From: Chiloscyllium plagiosum
Lineage: Eukaryota
Assembly: GCF_004010195.1 (NCBI RefSeq)
Contig: NC_057753.1
Span: 10,698,135 to 10,762,134 of the forward strand
Length of the DNA: 64,000 nt
Direction: 5' to 3'
The position numbers were made by a program, and so were the translations under genes. The notes beneath the pieces are model-generated. The model was not told the origin of the DNA and ran no database searches. It saw nothing but the letters and a program-made list of their open reading frames with translations. Shown piece by piece: positions 39,285 to 62,785 of this stretch (positions are counted from its first letter, which is position 1; every line of letters begins with the position of its first letter).

Positions 39285-40325
39285 AGTGGCCGAGCAAAGG
39301 CTGATAGCCTTGGGTTCATGTCACACTACAGGTGATCTCTCTCTGTCTCTCGCGCGCATACCCTCTCAATACACTCACTCTCTCTCAGACACACAAGCAC
39401 ACAACCCTACACTCACACCCAGGCACACACCCTCTCACAGGCTTATACTCCATCTCACACACACACACATACACTTTACAAACATGCACACATGCAAACA
39501 CACATTCTCTCATGGGCATGAGAGCGTGGATGGCACAGTGGTTAGCACTGCTGCCTCACAGCGCCAGAGACAATTCCCGCTTCAGGCGACTGTCTGTGTA
39601 GAGTTTGCACATTCTCCCCGTGTCTGCGTGGGTTTCCTCCGGGTCCTCCGGTTTCCTCCCACAGTCCAAAAATGTGCAGGATAGCTGAATTGGCCATGCT
39701 AAGTTGCCCGTAGTGTTAGGTGAAGGGGTAAGTGTAGGGGTCTGGGTGGGTTGCACTTCGGCGGGTCGGTGTGAATTTGTTGGGCCGAAGGGCCTGTTTC
39801 CACAATGTAAATGTAACACACACACACACATTTTACCAAACATGCACACATACAAACACACATTCTGTCATGGGCACTCACCTGTGCTGACTCTCTGTGT
39901 GTGCTCTGTCCCCAGCTGCACATATAGACAGGTCTGTAGGGTGTATTTGCATTTGCAGATACATTCTATTTTGCTCAAAAAGCAAACAATCTGCAGGCAG
40001 TCAATCCATGTCACGTTTTATCAACTCCTACTTTGGAAATACATCACTCTGACTCAGGATTGGCTGACAGACCTCACACATTTCACGTCTGAGCTGAGAT
40101 GTCACCTAGTTTTATAAAGCCTTAAGTTATCTCGAGAATGTGACTTAAAGTAGTTCTGGGATTTACAGACTAAAAGATGAAATACTTGACAGCAATCCAG
40201 GTTTGTTCAATATATCATTTTGGGTGCATGACACTCGAATCTTTTGCTATAAATTCTGTGTCTTATGATCCTGCTCCACAGCTACCTGATGACTATAACC
40301 CGGTGTTGTGTGATTTTTAACTTTG
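39285..40325 (+). mobile_element. Penelope-like family 2 3' end with nested V-SINE (39525-39812)
   Basis: Inverted counterpart of 32790-33452 (VAEQRLIA..GFMSH). The SINE is absent from the 33-kb copy. Confidence 0.7.
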
Positions 40326-41119
40326 TTTCTAGTGAATACAGCCCACACCTCCTCCTACTGCCATTAAACTTTACAATGCCGATGAAATTATGCAGTAGCT
40401 GCAGAGATGAACAGTTTAACAGTTTCTAACAATACTAGCTACTCATTCACTGCTCCTTCTGATACGCAACACTGGAAACTTAGTGCTGGAGACTGAAAGG
40501 AATGAGCAGCTTTAAAAAAAACTTGGATCTCTCAGTTTTCAATGAGAGCCTGAGTCCGGCAGTAAGTTCAGGTCTCCTTTATTGCAACCCAACTTTGTTA
40601 CAGCTTCAGATCCCCCCAGCAACATGGCGTATAAAAAGTAGCTTTTTTTTAAAAACAGCTCAAGGTCAAAGTGCACCCCACCACCACCTCCCTTACTCTT
40701 GGTCAGCACTATAATTGGATCCTAGGTACAGTCTTAACCTGTAGGGAAGTATTGCCTCAATCAGCAATTTCAACTTATACCCTGTATCCAAGTAAGTTTT
40801 TCTCCACTCATTTGCCGGGGGTGGGGAGGTGGGTGCGCAGTCAAGAGTCAACCACACTGCTCTAGGTCTGGAGTCACGTGTAGGCCAGATCGGGTAAAGG
40901 ATGCGGCTGGGGCGACTGAATGAATCCTTTCCCACAACGGCAGTTTCCATCAGTAGAAAGACATGAGTGAATCAGATGGATTTTCTTTCCCCAAAAATGG
41001 TTTCATCATTAGATTCTGGACTCCGGATTTCTGACCAAATTCCAATTCCACCATCTGCTGTGGCAGGATTTGAACCCAGGAGTCCCCAGAACTGGGTTGA
41101 TAGTCCGGTTAATAATGGC

Positions 41120-41620
41120 TTCACCCGCTCCTCCCACCTGCGATGGCACATGAACTCGCTGGTGCTTCTGCAGGTGGGAAGAGCAGGTGAAGCCCTTCCC
41201 ACACGGCGAGCAGGTGTGGACCCACTGGTGGGTTATCAGCTTAGCTGAGTGAGTGAACCCCTTCCTGCACTCGGGTCACCTGAACGGCCTCTCTCCCATG
41301 TGGAAGCGCCTCGTGCTTCTACAAGTTGCTGACCTGACTGAAGCCCTTCCCTCGCTCAGGGCAGTGAATGGCCTCTTGACCACATGTACCCATTGGTGCT
41401 TCTGCAGGTCATCTATCTGACTGAACCTCTGCCCATACACGGACCAGGTAAACAGCCTCTTCCCATTGTGGACCTGCTAGTGTTTAAGCAGGCCGGAAGA
41501 ATCGATGAATGCTTTCGCGCTGGTGTGTCAGGAGGTCAGACGCCTAAATGACTCTTCACCCACACTGAGAACCGGAGAATGGCCTCACCTTGGTGTGAAT
41601 GGGCCGGTGGGTTTCCATCA
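41120..41620 (-). pseudogene. C2H2 ZNF pseudogene
   Basis: Decayed fingers ending in [13 protein letters not shown] like the intact gene, with many stops and indels. Confidence 0.8.
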
Positions 41621-44196: not shown

Positions 44197-44737
44197 ATAA
44201 TGATTGGTCTTAAAGTGGATTCTGGTCAACACTTTGCCATCGAGAATATACCAGGGAACAGTGTACAGTATTTCCAAGTTTCACATCATCTGTAAACTTT
44301 CCAGTTGTGCACTGGGGTGTAGAAGAATGAGAGGTGACCTTATTTAGACCAATAAAATGCTGAGATGGGGGGGGGAGGAACTTGTCAGGGTAGATTCGGA
44401 CAAAATGCTTCCTTGTCAGAAAATCTAGAACTTCATGAGCCAGCTTACTAATAAAGGGATCCCATTTTAGGCAGAGATGAAGAATTTATTCTCTTGTTAG
44501 TTTCTGCCGTGCTCCCCCACAGGGAAAAATTGAGACAAAACTCTTTGAATGTATTCAAGGCTGAATTGAAGAGAATTTTGAGTGACAAGGGAATGAAAGG
44601 TTATGGAGAACAGGCAGGAAATGGAGTTAAGGCCACAGCAGCACAGATATGATCTTCTTGAATTGCAGAGCAATCCTGATGAATGGCAGTGGCAAGAAAC
44701 TGAACATGTTCTGTGCGTGAGTGGTCCTTCATTGTGG

Positions 44738-45307
44738 GGAAATGTGGGGACTGCGGGAAGGTATTCAAATTCCTGTCCTTTCTCAAACGCCATCAGTGCA
44801 GGCACACCAGGGAGAAACCGTTCACCTGCTCCGTGTGCGGGAAGACGTTCATTCATTTATCCACCCAGGTGACCCACCAGCAAGAGACCGTTCACCTGCT
44901 CCGTGTGCGACAAGGGGTTCAGTCAGTCATCTGCCCTGCTGACACACCGGCACATTCACACCAAGCAGAGGCCGTTTTCCTGCTCCATGTGCGGGAAGGC
45001 GTTTACCCAGTCATCTGCCCTGCTGACACACCAGCGCATCCACACCAAGGAGAGGCCATTTCTCTGCTCCATGTGTGGGAAGGCGTTTACCCAGTCATCT
45101 GCCCTGCTGACGCACCGGCGCATCCACACCAAGGGGAGGCCGTTTTCCTGCTCCATGTGCGGGAAGAGGTTCAATAATTCATCCGCCCTGCGGAGACACC
45201 AACGGGTCCACACCGGGGAGAGGCCATTCATCTGCTCTCAGTGCGGGAATGGCTTCACCCGCTCCTCCCATCTGCAGAAACACCAGCGAGTTCACGTGGC
45301 ATTGTAG
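44738..45307 (+). pseudogene. C2H2 ZNF, about 7 fingers, frameshift after finger 2
   Basis: KCGDCGKVF..H and CSVCGKTF.., then a shifted frame with five fingers ending [15 protein letters not shown]. Confidence 0.8.
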
Positions 45308-46375: not shown

Positions 46376-47185
46376 CTACAGGTTACAACAAATGCATCTT
46401 GACATCAGAGACCACAAGTATTTGAATAAGAGAATGCAGATAATTACAGGAAGAATAATAGTGCCAAAATGAGGAAAAAAAGCTCCGATATTTCCAAAGA
46501 AGTCCTTAAATGGCCACCATCCTGTGAGACTACCCATCTCCCCATAAGTCATATTTTCAAGTTTCTGAACTTCCAGGATAATGTGCCTTGAGAGATCAGT
46601 GATGTTGGAGGATTGGTCAGGAACGTAAGTACAGCATTCCTTTCCTACAATGGCACATGCCCCACCTTCTGTAGCCGATAGAAAGTCCAAGGCAAAATTA
46701 TTCTGAAGGGCTACTGTTCTGATTGTGACCATTTGTGCATTGATATTAGCCAGGGCATTTGCTGTATTATTGGTGACAATTTCCAGTATTATTCTTCATT
46801 TGCTTAATTCAGAGCCCTGAAAATGAAAGCATTATTGGAGGAGAGCCATTCCAATAAATGAGAAGAGAGCAGAGAGGTACCTCTTGGTCCTCAGGAGTGA
46901 AGGCAACCTGTCTAAGAGGAACAACATACTCTTTTACATCATCCCCACCAGTCTGGAGGGAGCCATGGATAGGCCTTGAGTCTACAAACAAAATGGATGC
47001 CATTATAGGCAGTTAAGCGAGAATATCCATCTTCCCATGCCCTGGAAATAGAGCCCTTCCAAAGGGATCCTTATGTTAAGGACTAAGGATCAATTAAATA
47101 GTAAAAAACCAAATTTAGTCAAATTTTGATTAGGTTCAATCGATGGGTTAGTGAGAGAGTATCGACTGGTCCCCATACTACTCCC
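46376..47185 (-). pseudogene. env: ERV env 3' half (SU end plus TM), disrupted
   Basis: FVCRLKAYPWLPPDWWG, furin site RTKR (46891-46880), hydrophobic fusion peptide, ISD-like LQNNFALDFL, CAIVGKECC (CX6CC) and a TM helix. In-frame stops are present. Confidence 0.9.
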
Positions 47186-47211
47186 CGGCGGGAATAACTA
47201 TGACTCTCTTA
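47186..47211 (+). rRNA. 26-nt 28S rRNA fragment (sequence upstream of the R2 target site)
   Basis: CGGCGGGAATAACTATGACTCTCTTA versus conserved 28S CGGCGGGAGTAACTATGACTCTCTTAAGG: 1 mismatch. Confidence 0.9.
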
Positions 47212-47337
47212 GACAAACTTAGTCTTAGTTGCCGACTATGACATTTTCACATATTTTTGGCGCATAGTTTGTGTCGTGCCTCCCCATTGGCCCTGCCAGT
47301 AAGCGCAGTCATCCTGGCTACTGGGTGACCAAACGAC
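47187..47337 (+). ncRNA. HDV-like self-cleaving ribozyme at the R2 5' end (probably mutated)
   Basis: Hand fold: P1 GGCGGG(47187-92)/CCTGCC(47292-97); P2 GTCGT(47273-77)/ACGAC(47333-37); P3 GCC(47278-80)/GGC(47289-91) with loop TCCCCATT; P4 GTCATCC(47308-14)/GGGTGAC(47323-29); catalytic-position C47330 followed by AA. Confidence 0.8.
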
Positions 47338-50300
47338 CAGAAAAAGTATGAGATGGCCGTGGTCCACGCAGACCTGATCTCAAATAAATTATGAGTCTTC
47401 CATTATCTATGAAGCAGTCCGGCTGGGAAGCGTCCTGGAAAAACAACCTCCCCGCAGCCTCGTCCGCAACTGCGAGCTGTGATAAGTCATTAAGTTGTGC
47501 ATGTTTAAAACCCGCAACAAGGTTCAAACCGAGACAAGGACCTTGAGACGATATCTCCTACCTTACATGGAGCTGAGACCGGACACCCCTCTCAGGGAGC
47601 CGGCTTGCCTAGTAACAGATGACCCAGATAACGTTGAAGAAGGTACCGTAAGTGCGGCCCACCCTACAGATGAGACAAGCATAACCAGCCAAACCTTCTA
47701 CAACAGAAGTTATAAAGACTCAATACACGGCACAGACTACAAAACGACTATAAACAAAACCAGTAAGGAAACAACCGAGACAACTGCCTTCATGGAAGGA
47801 GTTGTTATCGAGCCAGTATATGACAGAACATCTGTCCTGGAGGTAATTATCCACTACCCCGTCGATGGGCTGTTCCCCACGGTGAGCCTGTTCAAGATTC
47901 ATTTGACTAAAGTGCACAGAGTAAAGAATGTTCGAACAAAATGTTCACGCTGCGACAAAGCAGGAGAATACCATGCAATCGCCTGCCACTATCCAAAATA
48001 CAAAGGCAAAAAACAACCCCCAACAGGGGACTTTGCGTGCAGCGCGTGTGACCAACGGTTTTCTACTCAGTCGGGCCTTGGTCAACACGAGAGGCACAGA
48101 CACCCGATTCTAGGGAACGAGAAACGCCTCAAACCTGCACCCAAAGTCAAGGGCAAACCTGGGAGAAGTGATCGCGTATGGTCACAGGAGGAGGTGGCAC
48201 TCCTGAGGGAACTAGAAGTGAGATTTGCAGGATGCAAGTTTATAAATAAATCCATCGCCAGCATCCGTAAAACAAAAACCCCGAAATAAATCTCAGATAA
48301 ACGCAGACTCCTGGCAAACACCCCGACGGAGGTCCCGCCCCTAAACGAGTCCATAGACTTGCCTGAATCAGAGGCAGAGAGTATCCAGGAAAATTCCAAC
48401 GATCTCAACCTGCGCCAAAGAGCCAGCTGAAGAACACCGGCTTCGATCCCTAAACATAGGGACATAGATGACCAGCTTACACAGGCTGAGGAGCTCTTGA
48501 GCGCGAGGAATGACCCGGATCCCCTTGCCCTCGGGATTGGACTAGTGGAAAGTATTACTCACCTGCTAATGAATAGTAGGAAAGGACAGAGCAAACGCAA
48601 GAGGCCTCAACAAGATCGGGCCAAAAGAGACAGAAAGACAGGTAGCAATACCGGAGCCAAAATACGGTGGGCAGCATGTAGAGCGCTGTCTAGAGCGACA
48701 CAGCAGCTCTACAAAACTAACTGGCGCCAACTAGCTCGTGAGATCATGGGGGCACCGACCTCATCCACTTGTCCTCTCTCAAAAGAGGAATTGGAGACTT
48801 GTTTCCATGCGAAACTGTCAGCACCAAACCAAAAATTAAACATAAATGTGTATGCCTCATACACTGGTAAAGTTGATGACAGGTCCTTGATGAAACCTAT
48901 AGAAGTGGAAGAGGTTGAAGCAGCCATCAAGCGGATAGATGAGTGCAGTGCCGCTGGACCAGACGGCCTGAAACTGCAGGACATAAGAACAATCCATGAA
49001 CAAGAGGAAACTCATCTACCCCACCTCTTCTCCCTATGGAGCACGATAGTCAAGCACGATACCTGATTCACTAAGAAAGAGTCGAACGGTCCTGATTCCT
49101 AAGTGCAAGGATAAGGACCGCCTGAAAAGCATTGACAACTGGCGACCAATAACTATTGGTCCAATGCTGCTGCGACTGTTCATGAAAATAATGGCAAAAT
49201 GCCTTAGTGAAACAGTCAAAATAAACCCCAGGCAAAAGGGGTTCCTTGCGTCCGGGAGTGGCTGCTATGAAAACATTGTCATCCTTGAAAAAATCATTAA
49301 GGGAGCAAAACATAATCGCAAGGACCTCGCAGTTGTCTTTGTCAATTTGGCGAAAGCGTTCGACTCAGTTGGGTACAAACTATTGATCAAATCCTTGCAA
49401 AGAGTGAACCTCCCCAAAGCCTTTAAGCCTCACCGTAGACCTCTACACTGGCAACACAACAGTGGTGGGAGGGAACAGAAACTTTACCACCCCAGTGAAC
49501 ATTGAGAGGGGCGTAAAACAAGGTGACCCGTTCTCGCCAATACTATTTAACATTGCTTTGGATCCGTTGGTATGCTCTCTGGAGAGGGCCAACTCAGGGG
49601 TCACCATGCCCCTGGACGGCAGAAGAGTCGACTTTGGCCTTCACGGATGACATTGCCCTTCTAAGCGACTCACACACCGGAATGGCAAGGAATCTGAAGC
49701 TGCTCCAGACATACTGTGACCATACAGGCTTCAGTATTAACATAGCGAAGACGAAGGGATTCCACTTTACATTTAAAAGGAAGACCTTCTTATACAACCA
49801 CTTCACAAACTGGAAGCTGCAGGATGAATCCATAGCCTACATACCCCCAGGTGACACAACGAAGTACCTGTGTCACCCGTGGGCAGGTGTGGCAGAAAGG
49901 GAGTGGGAAGAGAAGCTTAAGTCCTGGGTTAAAGGAGTACAGGCAGCACCACTCCGACCACGACAACGGCTGGAAATCCTGAAAACACGTCATCCCCAGA
50001 CTGTATTTCCATCTCATCCTATCAGAGGCATCTCAGGCAACCCTCACTAAACTGGACCAAATAATCTGTAACACCACCAAAGAATTCCTACACCTACCAC
50101 CTCCTACCGCTGACGGAGTCCTGTATACCAGCAACAGGAATGGCAGTCTAGGTGTCCCAAAACTGGAAGTGCAGATTCCATCCGTCATTGTCCGCAAATG
50201 CGAGGCACTTGAGATGTCCAGTGATGTGGTCATTCGGGCCTCCTTTCAGTATAAAGGAGAGAGCAACACAGAGACCGTTGCGGGACTGTGAGAGCCCAAG

Positions 50301-51431
50301 GTCCTTTAAAAAAACTGAAAATTTCCAACCCAGTGGCAAGGAGGAAATGGACCCAATGACCATCATCAAAGACATCATGTCAGCACTCCAGGCGGCAGAC
50401 GCTGGGCGACAGAAACAGCCCAACAGGTATGCAGGTTGGAGGGAATGGGAATTCGAAAAGTGGCAAAATCTGGAATGTCAAAGGGCAGACATCCAGTACT
50501 TTAGAGATGACAAGATCTCTAACTCGTGGACAAAAGCAGCAATACAACAAAAATCCTCTAGGTTCATAAACACCTTGCTCTTGCGGTGAATCTATACGCA
50601 ACGAGTTACACTATCTAGAGGAAGGCCAAACCAAAATAAACTTTGCCGAAGGTGGGAGACGGCAATCGAGACCATCTCACACATCTCAGGATGCTGTCCA
50701 TTTGTAAAAAATGCTCGCATAAAACACCATAACAAGATCGCTGACCAGTTGCAAAAACATGTCAGTAAGTACGACTGGACATTGTACGTGGAGCTCAGAT
50801 TGGTCACAAAAGATGGCTCTCTATGGAAACCCGATCTCATATTTAAAAAAGAGCAGAAGATCGCAGTAGTAGATGTCACAGTGCGGTACAAGAATGACAG
50901 TAAAGCATTGGAAACAGCATGGCGGGAAAAAAGTGACAAATATAAACCCCTAAATGCCGAGGTCATGGAATTGACGGGGGGCACGGACCCCAAATACTTT
51001 GGCTTCGTGATGGGTCCATGAGGCAAGTGGCTGGGCCTGAATAACTGCCTCATGAAATTCCTCGGCATCGAGAAATTTGAGACATTCGCCCAAAAGACAT
51101 CAAGACTCACTTTGTCACTGACACTCGAATTATTACAACTCCTCAGTGACAAGTGAGCAAATAACCGCAGACTGTGATACACAATCTTTCACCGAGACAA
51201 GGATCGGCTAACCCCCACCAAAAAAATGATTAAAAAATTAAAAAAATGGGGGGGGCGCCGATCCACCAACACCAACATCATTAGGTCGTAGACCCTACTA
51301 ATTGACAAAAAACACCCGAGCCTCATATAACACCAGTACCACCTGGCCCTTGATCTGTGGTGATGCTGGAGAGTACAAAACATCGAGCGATGTAAAGACT
51401 CGGTAAAGGCACTCCTCTGAGTGTTTCAAAA

Positions 51432-51900
51432 TAAGCCTCTGGAGAAATTCCCATCTTTACTAAAGAAAATAGTATTATAAAGGACTACTAGGAAAGGGGG
51501 TATATGGGATCTGTTGTAGCCAGATTGGTACCAATCCCTGCATCGGGTCATTTTATGCCCTGCTGACTGCCATTCTTGTACTCCTTTCATTTTATCAGAA
51601 TCACCAGAAGAGTCCTGGAGTATTAGCCATTCTGCCACCTTGGGCCAGCTAGAGGAGACTGGCCACAGCGGGATACTCCCTGGGAATGGGGGCGGTACAT
51701 GAGCACATACCCAACAACCAATTACTTTTCCCATCGTTTGGGGCTCCTTTGATAAGCCAAATACAAAAAGGCATGATGATGTATAGATTGTCTTGGGCAC
51801 CCCCCCCAGGGAAAAATTAGTGTTAGCATGAAAGCCTTTGGCCCCCAAAATAAATCTCCTCAAAGTCACTGGTATCTAACGCATTTTTTCTTAGTCCTTG
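51432..51900 (-). pseudogene. env: ERV env 5' half (SU)
   Basis: Contains GCWVCAHVP (CXXC of gamma-type SU) and IPLWPV. Confidence 0.8.
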
Positions 51901-55529: not shown

Positions 55530-57710
55530 AAACAAAGTTTCATTGAAAACCTCTGTACAAAATTATAAAATTTCAAAACTTTGAAAATATAACATTATAA
55601 CAACAATAAACCAGCTGCTACACTACTCAGCAAAGCAAATCAAAACCATTCGCATTACAGATAAATAAATAGTGCCGCTCAGCGCAACAAGACCATAGTT
55701 CTCGACCTTTGACAGCATTAATTATTACACCAACATTTGTTTGAAATTCTTCCTCTCCGGGCATCAGGTTTAACTAAACCAAACCGTCCCGACTAAACAA
55801 AGACCCTAATTAAAATGGCAGACAAAACTGCTTTCAGGTAACTCAGAAAGTGACGCCATAGTTTATAAAGACTTTCCATTTTTCATGTACCATATTTGTG
55901 GGAAAGTCCAAAGGAACATGTTCCATAATTAACTTACGCCACCCTGATAGACCCAGGGGTGTTCACAGACACCCAGCATATCAGAATATTCTTCCTCGTA
56001 CAAAAAGTGAGGATGTTTAGGAATATGAGTTTAGTAACCCCAGGAGGAGAGAGAGACCGGGTCCACCTTATCATTGGTCCCCAAGACCCTAAGTATTGTT
56101 CCTGCCACAGTGCTCCAATATATACGAGACTTGTAGGACCACAAGCAATGAGTGAGGGTACTTGTGCTTATTTTACACTTGGGGCACATTGAAGATGCTC
56201 CCTCCTTAAATTTCCTGAGATGATCTGGGGCCAGATGAACACCTATGAAGAATCTTTAACTGCATAGTATGTGTCCTATTACAGATCGAAATCTTCCTCT
56301 CATTCTCACAAATATCCTCCCATGTTTCCGAAGTGATCTTAACTCCTAACTCTCTATCCCAGACCTGACGTAGTCTCTCAATATCACCCAAGAAACACCC
56401 TTCCACCACAGCAGATGATAGAGCACTCACAGAGAGTGTTCTGAGCATGAAGCACCCACTTCTCTGTATCAGATCTATAACACTCAGTCAAAAGCGTAGT
56501 CCCTTTTCGAATAAAATCTCTAATGTGAAAGAAATTAAAGTGGTCCCTACTCGATAGTCCATACTTACGAATTACTTGATCAAAAGACATCATCACTTCA
56601 CCCTCAAACAAATCACCCAAACAAGAAACTCCGCTGTCTGCCCAAAGTTAAAACCTGGGGTTCATTATCCCTTGCCAGAAACCTGGCATGCCATCTATGG
56701 GAGTAAGAAAAGAAGTTTTACATATATTACCCTCCATCTGCCTCATTGCCCTCTATGCTTTAACAGTATTAGTAACTATTGGGTTATGGCAATGTTCCGC
56801 AACCTTTAAAAATTTTGCCTGAGAGGCCTCAATATCCTCATGTGTCCAATCACTTACAAAAGATAGAAGGGAACCTAATTGATGTCTTCTGATATCTGGG
56901 AGATCCATCACCCCCACCCCCCAATCCCTGGAGCAGTTGCAGTTTTGCAAGCTTAATAAGGGGCCACCTATGGCGCCAAATAAAAGAACTAAACCAATAA
57001 TTCAATTTCCGAAATGTTTGCCTGGGAAAAAGCCAAGGGAGCATCCACAGAGGGTAAAATTCGCAATCAAGAACATTCATTTTGATAAGAGCTACTCTAC
57101 CTCACCATTATGTTGGAAGGGCCATCTCTGAAAATCTTGAAAGACAGGGGTAATAGAAAGGCCAAAGTAAAGAAAACCTCCCTGTACCCGCTTAAAGGGA
57201 AACCTACCCTCAATGTCAGGTATTCACCTAAGGCCCACCCCCCCCAACTTTGAAAAATTTATCTTGTAACCTCTGAGAAAGAGCCAAATGAATTGATGCA
57301 CTGTATCAAATGGGGTACTGAAACTGTGGGTTCAAGAGAAAAATAAGAACATTATCTGCATATAACGTGATCTTGTGCACCTTTGGTCCCACCACTGGGG
57401 CAACTATATTCGGGTCCCTACAATAGCCTCCATCAGCGGCTCAATCACCAATGTGCAAAGTAAAGGTGAAAGGGGACAGCCTTGCTGACTGCTCCTACCA
57501 GTGTTAAAATTATTAGACCTTACACCAATGGTGAGAACTACTGCTATAGGATCACTGTAAAGGACCCTTAGCCATCTAGTAAACAGTTCACCCAACCCAA
57601 ACCGCTTCAGGATATATAAAAGATACAGCCACTCCACCCAGTCAAAAGCCTTCTCTGCATCCGGAAACCACCAACTCTCGAAACGATCGCTGCTGACACA
57701 TTTGAATCAT
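55530..57710 (-). mobile_element. L1-clade LINE ORF2 3' part, decayed
   Basis: DAEKAFDWVEW, QGCPLSPLL and KITLYADN motifs, plus C-terminal CPKC region. Confidence 0.8.
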
Positions 57711-60280: not shown

Positions 60281-62153
60281 CAGAATTTGCAGAATTATAT
60301 TTGCAGATAGATTCAATTTTGCTCAAAAAGTGTACAATCTACAGGCAGTCAATCCATGTAATATTTTATGAATTCCTACTATGGAAATAGAACCAGCCTG
60401 ACTCAAAATTGGGATACGGACAGACTCAACTTCACATCTTTAATGCATTGTCTGAGCTAAAATGTCACCTTAAGTTACGTCGAGAATGTGACTTAAAAGA
60501 AGTTCCGTAATTTACACATTACTGAACCGAAACCTGCAATCCATTTCAAAAGGTGAAAGACTTAGCAGCAATCTAAGTTTGTTCAATATATCATTTCAGT
60601 TACACGACAGCGTAATCTTTTGCTACAAATTCTGTGCCTTATGATCCTACTCCACAGCTACCCGATGAAACAGCAATGCTCTGAAAGCTAATGCTTCCGA
60701 ATAAACATATCAAAGAACCTGGTATTGTGCGATTTTTAACTTTATCCACCCTAGTCCAACACCGGCTCCTCCACATTGGGCTGTCTTCATGAGAAACACG
60801 TCTCCCGCTGCTGCCAGTAAACTTTACAATGCTGATGAAACGATGAACCTGCAGGCCTGAAAAATTTACAATTTCTAACCATACTAGCTACTCATTCACT
60901 GCTCCTTTTGATACACGACATTGGAAACTTAGTGCTGGAGGCTGAAAGAAATGAGCAGCTTTAAAACAAAACCCTGTTGGATGTAATAGCTTTCAATGAG
61001 TGTTACAGCTTCAGAACTCCCCAGCAACAAGGCATACAAATAGTAGCTTTTTTCTTTAAATAGCTGAAGGTCAAAGTGCACACACTCCTCCCTCCCTCCC
61101 CCCCAAAACTTTACTAGCGGTCAGTTCATTTGTCCCTTTGTAATTGGATCCTTTGTAGGAAATATTGCCTCACTCAGCAACTTCAACCCATACACTGTAT
61201 CCAGATAAGTTTCTCCCTGCTCATTGGCTTTTGGAGGGGTGGGGGGGTGCACTTTGACCTAGAGCTGTTTTGTAAAAAAGCTACTTTTTCTACACCTTGT
61301 TGCTGGGGAGTTCTGAAGCTGTAACAAAGTTGGGTCGCAATAAAAGTTACCTGACTCATTAAAAGCTATGAGATCCAACAGGTTTTTGTTTTAAAGCTGC
61401 TCATTTCTTTCAGCCTCCAGCACTAAGTTTCCAATGTCATGTATCAGAAGGAGCAGTCAATGAGTAGCTAGTACTGTTAGAAATTGTAAATTTTTCAGGA
61501 CTGCAGGTTCATCATTTCATCAGCATTGTAAAGTTTACTGGCAGCAACAGCAGACGTGGGCTATATTCACTAGAAACGATGTGGAGGAGCCCATGTTGGA
61601 CTGGGGTGGATAAAGTTAAAGATCACACAACACCAGGTTATACTCCCAACAGGTTTATTTGAAAGCACTAGCTTTCGGAGCACTGCTCTTTTATCAGATA
61701 GCTGTGGAGCAGGATCGTAAGGCACAGAATTTGTAGCAAAAGATTAGTGTCATGCAACTGAAATGATATATTGAACAAACCTAGATTGCTGTTATTGCTA
61801 AGTTGCTGAAGTATTGCCTCACTCAGCAGTTTCAACCCATACGCTATATCCAGGTAAGTTTCTCCCTGCTCATTGGCTGGGATGGGGGGGCAATAGCAGT
61901 TAAGAATCAACCATACTGCTGTGGGTTTGGAGTCACATGTCAGCCAGACTGGGTAAAGAATGCAGCTGGGACCACTGAGTGAATCAGATGGGGTTTTTAT
62001 TTTACCCTGACAATGGTTTTATCGTTACATTCTGAACTCTGGATTTCTGACCGAATTCCAGTTCCACCATTTGCCTCGGTGGGGTTTTGAACTCCAGACT
62101 CCCCAGAACTAGGTTGATAGTCCGGTCCATAATGGCACTAGATTGACGCTCCT

Positions 62154-62785
62154 TCAATTCCCCCTGCGATGGCACATGAACTCGCTGGTGCCTCTGCAGG
62201 TAGGAGAAGCGGCTGAAGTCATTACCGCACTGACAGCAGGTGAACGGCCTCTCCCCCTTGTGGACCTGCTGGTGCTCCTGCAGATTACCCAGCTGACTGA
62301 AGCCCTTCCTGCAGTCGGGGAAGGTGAATGGCCGCTTCCCGGTGTGAACGCGCTGGTGCATTCACAGGATGCCCCCTGACTGAAGTCCTTCCCGCACACT
62401 GAGCAGGTGAACGGCCTCTCCCTGTGTGGCCCCGCCAGTGCCTCAGCAGGGCGGATGAATTGCTGAAGGCCTTCCTGCACTAGGGTCAGCTGAAGGGCCT
62501 CTCCTCGTTGTGGCCCCACCGTTGGGAAGCCTGGGTAAATCCCTTTCCGCACTCTGAGCAGAAAAACGGCCTCTCCCTGGCGTGGACTCAGCAGGGTGAA
62601 GGAATCACTGAAGCCCTTCCCGCATTCTGGGCAGGAGAAGGGCTTTGCCCCTCTGTAACTGCACCGATGAGTCTCCAGGGCAGACAGAGCACAGAAGCCT
62701 TTCCCATAGTCGCCACATTTACACGCTTTCGCCACATTTACACGCTTTCTCCACAGAGTGGGATTCCTCAGGTTTCTCCACGGCC
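62154..62785 (-). pseudogene. C2H2 ZNF pseudogene
   Basis: SALETHR first finger through [14 protein letters not shown]. Frameshifts include a 19-bp tandem duplication at 62711-62748. Confidence 0.85.

Follow-up and report, generated by a model that had tools for sequence, protein, structure and literature searches.

R2 is the textbook site-specific retrotransposon, and the closest described relatives of the element reported here are the vertebrate R2s of the three-zinc-finger (A) lineage, such as R2Tg of the zebra finch (Protein Data Bank (PDB) entry 9dou) and those of entries 9nl2 and 9nl3. Their order of domains is three zinc fingers (ZnF), Myb, reverse transcriptase (RT), CCHC and restriction-like endonuclease. 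The same order is found in an end-to-end R2-type element of the A lineage located at positions 47186-51431 (+ strand) of a 64,000-nt stretch of the Chiloscyllium plagiosum genome (contig NC_057753.1, 10,698,135 to 10,762,134; hereafter the window), within an env remnant of an endogenous retrovirus (ERV). Pieces of this element match the A-lineage R2s with E values of 1e-24 to 1e-32 and R2Bm with values of 2e-3 to 1e-9. Unlike the vertebrate A-lineage R2s cited, the window copy lies outside the ribosomal DNA (rDNA) and is dead, and its family has many dispersed copies.

Insertions of such elements outside the 28S rRNA gene have been described before. In Drosophila, non-28S copies of R1 and R2 are products of authentic retrotransposition with intact 3' junctions, often into repeats (Stage and Eickbush, 2009; PMC2718515). 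The 5' ends of the R1 copies carry 7-28 bp of upstream 28S sequence, and their 3' ends may include as much as 14 nt of downstream 28S, like the shark copies described below; the R2 copies outside rDNA are few, mostly incomplete and 1-2% diverged (PMC2718515). The shark genome, in contrast, contains at least 40 R2 copies, about half of them end to end, in a long series of subfamilies and shared between species. In Bombyx mori, a non-28S insertion of R2Bm at a target-like site was described together with a RUM/RASIN model of the target (Wilkinson et al., 2023; PMC10499050). The R2NS families of flatworms are R2-clade elements residing at many non-rDNA places, as in the shark, but they have lost 28S specificity (Kojima et al., 2016; PMC5035012), whereas the shark family keeps 28S junctions and a fresh 28S leader. 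The first-pass annotation of the window, made from the letters alone, had proposed a probable shark R2-A family that might be uncharacterised; the lineage stood, but R2s are by now on record for sharks: those of both lineages have been reported from Chondrichthyes (PMC13188248, 2026) and an angel-shark R2 junction has been listed (PMC5035012, 2016).

Identity and decay of the element

The coding part of the element, read from stop to stop, consists of at least six frame pieces on the + strand, collinear in tblastn with residues 59-1269 of P0013, a shark R2 protein of 1289 aa comprising three N-terminal zinc fingers, Myb, RT, CCHC and a PD-(D/E)xK endonuclease. Three consecutive pieces match Pfam RVT_1. 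Among the sequences of solved structures, the RT piece is most similar to 9nl3 (E 1.5e-32) and R2Tg (9dou, 1.9e-32), with weaker matches to R2Bm (1.6e-12) and LINE-1 ORF2p (4.9e-5). The best matches of the ZnF2-ZnF1-Myb piece are R2 / A-lineage chains (E 4.4e-24; R2Bm 0.002) and those of the piece with CCHC and endonuclease are R2 chains (E 9.3e-32; R2Bm 1.4e-9). The first-pass annotation had listed all R2 domains in order and assigned the element to R2-A; both statements agree with the alignment to P0013 and with the N-terminal, RT and C-terminal pieces, all of which match A-lineage chains far better than R2Bm, so that on sequence grounds the A-lineage assignment appears to hold.

A large protein collection contained 82 proteins that match this copy with an E value no greater than 1e-10. 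Of the top 16, 14 are named as shark proteins (Chiloscyllium, Scyliorhinus, Stegostoma) and show 58-83% identity; birds and teleosts come next, with proteins of about 47-53%. In a phylogenetic tree of 30 RT rows, constructed without a labelled non-R2 outgroup, the window sequence clusters with three shark R2-like proteins (support 100/99), beside bird and teleost R2s and away from the arthropod group; in the RT phylogeny that the annotation had suggested, the element thus stands beside R2s.

The open reading frame (ORF) of the window copy is interrupted by at least five frameshifts and five in-frame stops (48287, 48428, 50289, 50587, 51019). ZnF2 and ZnF1 are present, with the last C of ZnF2 altered, while the CxxC of the first finger (ZnF3), one of the three retained in the related P0013, is deleted. 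These frameshifts and stops, together with mutations in the core of the predicted ribozyme (see below), mark the copy as dead: a nested repeat for which a function is not likely.

The insertion site and its empty counterpart

The host of the insertion is the degraded env of a gamma-type ERV lying on the minus strand (Table 1). The translation of the transmembrane (TM) frame contains ..GGACAIVGKECC.. and its CX6CC motif reads CAIVGKECC. The env flank is a multi-copy sequence with 45 matches in the genome at 65-82% identity, and 16 of 19 ERV paralog loci carry both flanks no more than 200 nt apart with no R2 between them; the other three lack the right flank in the DNA examined. The annotation had taken both flanks for env, which is corroborated by the TLV_coat match on the left and by this proximity of the flanks in the paralogs.

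In eight paralog loci the flanks abut, giving the empty site ..CCCCATA(TA)/TAAGCCAC.. (the slash marks the junction). The target at the 3' junction therefore opens with TAAGCC, and relative to the paralogs this junction is exact; at the 5' junction the two nucleotides TA were lost and 8 nt of filler, CTACTCCC, were gained. The filler resembles the reverse complement of the GGGAGTA of the 28S-derived leader at the element's 5' end, and could be a product of snap-back. Because 8 nt stand in for 2 nt, the env reading frame is preserved across the join. The clean in-frame join proposed in the annotation was accordingly right in its frame arithmetic, but not perfectly clean, and the uninterrupted ERV copies that it asked to be aligned correct the empty site to ..CCCCATA(TA)/TAAGCC... 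The paralogs are broken as well, with open frames of 35-90 aa across the site, and five of the eight read ..FSxGL/YMGTS... No target site duplication (TSD) was detected at the window insertion by comparison with the paralog empty sites, as the annotation had said, nor at other copies of the family, in which the flanks of paired 5' and 3' loci were compared by eye.

Junctions in public sequence runs

Logan contigs from four public runs, belonging to four studies and two species (organisms A and B), were aligned to window positions 46800-51900. The 5' junction is bridged in organism A by a 390-nt contig of run X1, which may come from the source sample, and a 483-nt contig of run X5, both free of differences, and in organism B by a contig of run X6 (46888-47523, 19 differences, 16 gaps) and a contig of run X8. 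The 3' junction is bridged in organism B by contigs of X6 (51384-51897) and X8 (51323-51537). The organism-B contigs differ from the window in only 1.4-3.2% of letters, while the env paralogs are at most about 85% alike, indicating that the contigs derive from the same locus in the second species, and hence that the insertion predates the split of the two organisms. The insertion is real and older than the divergence of organisms A and B, and of the junctions that the annotation had asked to be confirmed, the 5' one is supported by contigs of both organisms and the 3' one by contigs of organism B.

Two organism-A contigs (X1, depth 2.7; X5, 633 nt) join position 49141 to 51668, omitting 2526 nt that comprise the 3' half of R2 and 236 nt of env. 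This joint may represent a deletion allele segregating in the species or a contig artefact. Run X5 has uncovered bins at 49194-50561, which are uninformative by themselves.

The 28S leader, the 3' terminus and the predicted ribozyme

The element's 5' end reads C-GGCGGGAATAACTATGACTCTCTTA, in which 47187-47211 corresponds to positions -28 to about -4 relative to the R2 site of the genome's own 28S with a single mismatch. The preceding C, at 47186, may belong either to 28S (-29) or to the filler. The family's 3' terminus, at window position 51431, is common to 29 of 29 other copies examined (within 0-2 nt). None of these 29 continues into 28S, and the window continues with TAAGCCTCTGG, which is not 28S. 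The annotation's claims of a 28S-derived leader and of absence of 28S downstream are thereby substantiated.

All 27 other 5' junctions examined start with 28S-like sequence. The sequence GGCGGGAGTAAC is present with no more than two mismatches in 18 of the 27; in none of the 18 does the match to 28S extend beyond -28, and in about 16 it begins exactly at that position. In the 5' untranslated regions (UTRs) of four copies (L006, L007, L009, L010), a second, degenerate leader copy (GGGAGTAACTCTGACATAA..) is located just inside the 28S leader; it looks as if a leader-bearing RNA had re-entered 28S, the old stub becoming part of the element.

In young copies of the family the 5' UTR comprises, in order, P2 GTCGT, P3 GCC, L3 TCCCCGCT, P3' GGC, P1' CCCGCC, P1.1 GG, P4 CCCAGCAG with its partner CTGCTGGG, J4/2 and P2' ACGAC. 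The P1' strand is complementary to GGCGGG, which is 28S -28..-23. Many R2 ribozymes cut the co-transcript inside 28S, most commonly at -28 (zebra finch, silkmoth and others), and in those cutting at -28 the 28S bases -28..-22 form P1 (Eickbush et al., 2013; PMC3774820). In a fold model scored on 15 copies, standard pairs occupy 92% of cells, versus 26-52% when the partners are slid, and four pairs, each of them located in P4, show changes on both sides. The window copy carries mutations in L3 and P1.1. From the start of the leader and the fold model we infer that the co-transcript was cleaved at -28 by a hepatitis delta virus (HDV)-like ribozyme.

The R2 family in the genome

Copy numbers given here are lower bounds, being taken from the best-scored candidates. 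The first 1015 nt of the element have at least 45 matches (53 candidates, 40 scored) of 70-85% identity on many chromosomes, and the last 732 nt at least 41 (79 candidates, 40 scored). The genome thus contains at least 40 dispersed copies of the family, and at least 19 loci appear in both the 5' and the 3' lists at the correct spacing, which means that about half of the copies are end to end. As one of at least 40 dispersed copies, the window insertion is no rare event in this genome.

A pattern joining the R2 3' end to the 28S continuation, searched for as the annotation had advised, has nine matches in the genome, while a control has none. Five of the nine extend over 300 nt into 28S that is 80-93% identical to the functional gene, and are accordingly old rDNA-derived fragments. 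Two others contain 14 and 63 nt of 28S followed by unrelated DNA, which points to RNA 3' ends running slightly into 28S. The window copy is located away from the 28S insertion site (..TTAAGG/TAGCC..), to which the family is connected by these nine matches. On this sequence evidence the family is rDNA-specific, with AAGG/TAGCC in 28S as its target. Only four exact uninserted 28S target sites are present in the assembly, in which rDNA is therefore poorly represented.

The tree of the 3' 732 nt is ladder-like, with terminal branches of 0.02-0.11 (0.06 for the window), as expected of one evolving master lineage sampled over time. Two copies, at C28:50225050-50228767 (L035) and C1:68873930-68877647 (L036), have identical 3' flanks and zero terminal branches, and therefore represent a segmental duplication rather than two insertions. 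The genome also holds dispersed 28S+R2 pseudogene fragments. At C7:27816154-27819178 (L065), a 28S fragment of 131 nt (98.5% identity) starts about 13 nt upstream of the R2 site.

Target sites of the dispersed copies

Bases at the 3' junction were counted in 29 non-redundant copies, one duplicate locus having been dropped. T occupies +1 in 28 copies, A occupies +2 in 25, G occupies +3 in 18 and C occupies +5 in 17, which follows the TAGCC of 28S. Of the 3' junctions of the other 29 copies (L012-L040), 10 fall at a single position of a CR1-like long interspersed nuclear element (LINE), as do 7 of the 27 5' junctions; in the 19 copies outside this hot spot, T, A and G are found at +1, +2 and +3 in 18, 15 and 11 cases.

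The LINE hot spot lies in codons for PGNY/RPVSLTS, and all eight uninterrupted LINE copies read ..CCTGGTAATTA/TAGACCAGTG... A 35-nt pattern of the site occurs 3427 times in the genome (control 0). The ten R2 copies at this position are located on different branches of the tree and differ in the details of their junctions, and thus represent independent hits. At the four LINE sites with both flanks known, 0-6 nt of the target were lost; small losses without TSD, of 2 nt in the window, are as in the R2 clade. The 5' junction at LINE sites often fuses the LINE GGTAA with the leader AGTAAC, and such fusion is predicted by the model of Eickbush et al. (2013; PMC3774820) for a cDNA carrying a 28S stub.

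Upstream of the cut, the LINE agrees with 28S at 19-20 of 40 positions if a shift of one base is applied, compared with 11-12 of 40 without it. With the offset set by the paralogs, the upstream flank in the window agrees with 28S -40..-3 at 18 of 38 positions (P 0.002), and includes a 28S-like motif, GAGAGAGTA, at 47153-47161 (-27..-19 of the cut). Among the other 18 non-LINE flanks, seven have at least six of nine matches to this motif at that offset, while shifted offsets give 2, 2, 2, 0 and 0. Cleavage by R2Bm requires T(+1) and tolerates one additional base separating the upstream motif from the cut (PMC10499050); the off-target site of R2Bm likewise keeps T(+1) and the upstream motif at the right distance, and its tolerance of one extra base parallels the one-base shift of the LINE hot spot. 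R2Bm, however, belongs to the one-finger D lineage, unlike the A-lineage window element, and the bases read by the A-lineage shark protein may differ from those read by R2Bm, so target-likeness is judged here by analogy.

Three R2 copies of two lineages (L088, L090 and L102, on C31, C17 and C20) lie no more than about 15 nt from one another in the same region of another LINE family (..GGGCACTACCTGTG..), a region that may be a second hot spot. At C5:91327646-91328346 (L087), the R2 5' end abuts inverted LINE hot-spot sequence, the flank being the reverse complement of ..TATAGATCAGTGAG...

Origin of the insertion

Very probably, the window element arose by off-target retrotransposition of a ribozyme-processed rDNA co-transcript into the ERV env. 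An A-lineage R2 residing in rDNA would have been transcribed as part of the 28S precursor. Cleavage of this co-transcript by the element's HDV-like ribozyme, at a point 28 nt upstream of the R2/28S junction, would have left the RNA with a 28S stub at its 5' end. The R2 protein would then have nicked an already resident ERV env rather than the 28S gene, at a site resembling the 28S target in its GAGAGAGTA (-27..-19), its A in position -3, its T and A in positions +1/+2, and a GCC that comes one base late. Reverse transcription of the full RNA from this nick would have produced the exact 3' junction. R2Bm cleaves the top strand 2 bp upstream of its nick in the bottom strand. In env, a top-strand cut 2 nt upstream would account for the loss of TA and the absence of a TSD. 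Since env shares no homology with the cDNA's 28S stub, the 5' end would have been joined through 8 nucleotides, either untemplated or snapped back; we infer this order of strand cuts and this origin of the filler. Outside rDNA the copy would be neither transcribed nor renewed, hence its decay. The insertion would have occurred before organisms A and B separated, and the same leak would have been repeated many times in the genome. The annotation's reading of an off-target integration of a full-length transcript is supported by the leader at the ribozyme cleavage position, the precise 3' terminus, the paralog empty site and the junction contigs from two species.

Several points weigh against this scenario. 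No intact rDNA master copy of the exact family was found in the assembly. The junctions are supported by contigs rather than raw long reads, and among the contigs listed none from organism A bridges the 3' junction, with depth present there. The ribozyme fold was derived from the same sequences that were used to score its pairing, the shuffle control is weak, as 24 of 500 shuffles attain the same percentage of pairing, and Rfam searches with the element and its flanks, three younger copies and the rDNA-embedded R2 revealed no ribozyme or R2 RNA family, the only matches being LSU rRNA in L062 and weak miRNA-like hairpins. The upstream motif was picked after seeing two examples, and its enrichment over all copies is only suggestive: random positions predict 8%, and shuffled motifs average 4.0 of 18, with 6% of them reaching seven. 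Finally, TA at +1/+2 could come from a 28S 3' tail of the RNA or from microhomology priming rather than from recognition by the protein.

Among the alternatives, the one that survives best, although we consider it unlikely, is a non-site-specific element similar to R2NS that had captured a 28S-derived 5' segment and spread autonomously, for which insertion into env would be normal behaviour. Dozens of dispersed copies of all subfamily ages, about half with both ends, the recurrent LINE hot spots, the lack of an observed intact rDNA copy, and the second degenerate 28S-like copy inside the 5' UTR of some subfamilies are all compatible with such an element, and non-specific R2 families exist in flatworms (PMC5035012). 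It is at odds with the nine matches joining the R2 3' end to 28S, none being found with the control, and with the 14- and 63-nt 28S tails at the 3' ends of two dispersed copies. In addition, the leaders are identical to 28S across subfamilies of very different age and never reach past -28, which fits fresh co-transcription better than inheritance, and the predicted P1 requires 28S bases.

Endonuclease-independent capture, in which R2 cDNA or RNA patched a chance break in the ERV with no recognition of the target by the protein, is improbable to a still greater degree. It would readily explain the 5' filler, the missing TSD and an env lacking homology to the leader, but hardly the T at +1 in 28 of 29 sites or the ten hits of copies from different subfamilies at the same LINE nucleotide; moreover, the 2-nt loss fits the staggered R2 cut, and the upstream flank is 28S-like at the right offset. 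An assembly chimera, or transfer of an rDNA fragment at the DNA level through recombination or segmental duplication, can practically be dismissed, for despite the frequent misassembly of rDNA and repeats and the existence of dispersed 28S+R2 pseudogene fragments, it is already contradicted by contigs of four runs, four studies and two species that cross the junctions, and by element ends that coincide with RNA ends (-28 and the 3' terminus), beyond which neither side continues into 28S.

Beyond off-target retrotransposition of the co-transcript at this locus, a broader proposal, for which we see the case as evenly balanced, is that R2s of at least two lineages leaked repeatedly from rDNA over a long time. 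They would have been steered by residual recognition of 28S-like sites, through T-A at the cut and, about 19-25 nt upstream of it, a motif similar to GGAGTA, with mimics in LINE coding sequence serving as secondary landing pads.

A second R2 lineage in the same genome

The genome was searched for R2 RTs with a 151-aa RT piece of the window. A second, P0013-like lineage, whose RT is 55-63% identical to this piece, was detected at C89898 (L062), C99392 (L063) and C20:54986600-54992600 (L101, L102). The copy L062 is embedded in large subunit (LSU) rRNA (Rfam LSU E 3.5e-112), and its complex 5' junction includes a duplication of 28S. Many chromosomal copies carry long open frames, for example of 1196 aa on C20, 1130 aa on C16 and, near position 67004, 1062 aa on C44. 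Over 376 nt of 5' UTR, the C20 copy shares 95.7% identity with the rDNA copy. It lacks a 28S leader, is inserted in another LINE and is followed by TAAGCC. Off-target insertion by copies of this lineage may perhaps be recent as well.

Features of the locus

The coordinates of the element and its host are listed in Table 1. No pair of long terminal repeats (LTRs) was found by the ERV, the direct repeats present being zinc-finger repeats, a 20-kb duplication and other interspersed repeats. No pol adjoining env was found either: of 15 neighbouring frames, 14 had no Pfam match. Just to the left of the ERV, at 44700-45300 on the + strand, C2H2 zinc fingers form a tandem array with a period of 84 nt, and a direct repeat with zinc-finger-like repeats (40172-41300 vs 60548-62500, about 20.4 kb apart) shows 78-91% identity. 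To the right of the ERV remnant, a reverse-transcriptase remnant (RVT_1, E 2.1e-7) is located at 57404-57706 on the minus strand.

Table 1. Positions of the R2 element, its parts and the surrounding env sequence in the window.
Feature	Position	Strand	Basis
ERV env TM remnant, 139-aa open frame with a stretch like the immunosuppressive domain (ISD) and CX6CC	46376..46795	-	Pfam TLV_coat E 4e-8, profile positions 441-545 of 560
Env remnant between TM frame and insertion site	46796..47177	-	Contiguous with right flank in 8 paralogs
Filler, 8 nt, replacing target TA	47178..47185	.	Missing from 8 of 8 abutting paralog empty sites
28S-derived 5' leader	47186..47211	+	Comparison with the genome's own 28S
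HDV-like self-cleaving ribozyme remnant (predicted)	47187..47337	+	Fold model scored on 15 copies
P1	47187-47192 paired with 47292-47297	+	Ribozyme fold model
Ribozyme core (P2, P3, L3, P1.1, P4, P2')	47273-47337	+	Ribozyme fold model
R2 ORF remnant	47591..51093	+	tblastn with P0013, Pfam, PDB sequence searches
ZnF2, ZnF1 and Myb	around 47900-48289	+	Within R2 ORF remnant
RT	49050-50041	+	Within R2 ORF remnant
CCHC and PD-(D/E)xK endonuclease	50590-51021	+	Within R2 ORF remnant
3' UTR ending ..GTGTTTCAAAA	51094..51431	+	Family's 3' terminus
Env remnant on the surface subunit (SU) side	51432..51875	-	Open frame 51426-51875; contiguous with left flank in paralogs

Implications

The window element adds to the known off-target R2s, and the genome-wide pattern is of greater interest. 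In the part of the literature that was searched, no description of dispersed vertebrate R2s with -28 leaders or of the LINE hot spot was found. Proteins of the A lineage are under development to write genes into human rDNA, and for that reason the manner in which an A-lineage R2 misses its target is of practical interest. The window presents a well-documented natural failure of targeting: the empty site is known, the junctions are exact, and the 28S stub keeps a record of the point of RNA cleavage. Dozens more escapes with a readable target pattern and LINE hot spots are found in the same genome. The ladder-like tree of the dispersed copies preserves past states of the rDNA-resident element. 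If the recurrent, steered leak from rDNA is true, the full-length dispersed copies would provide a spectrum of off-target sites, formed naturally in the germline, for the A-lineage R2 proteins being engineered for gene insertion, and at the same time a fossil series for an element whose copies in rDNA normally vanish through concerted evolution.

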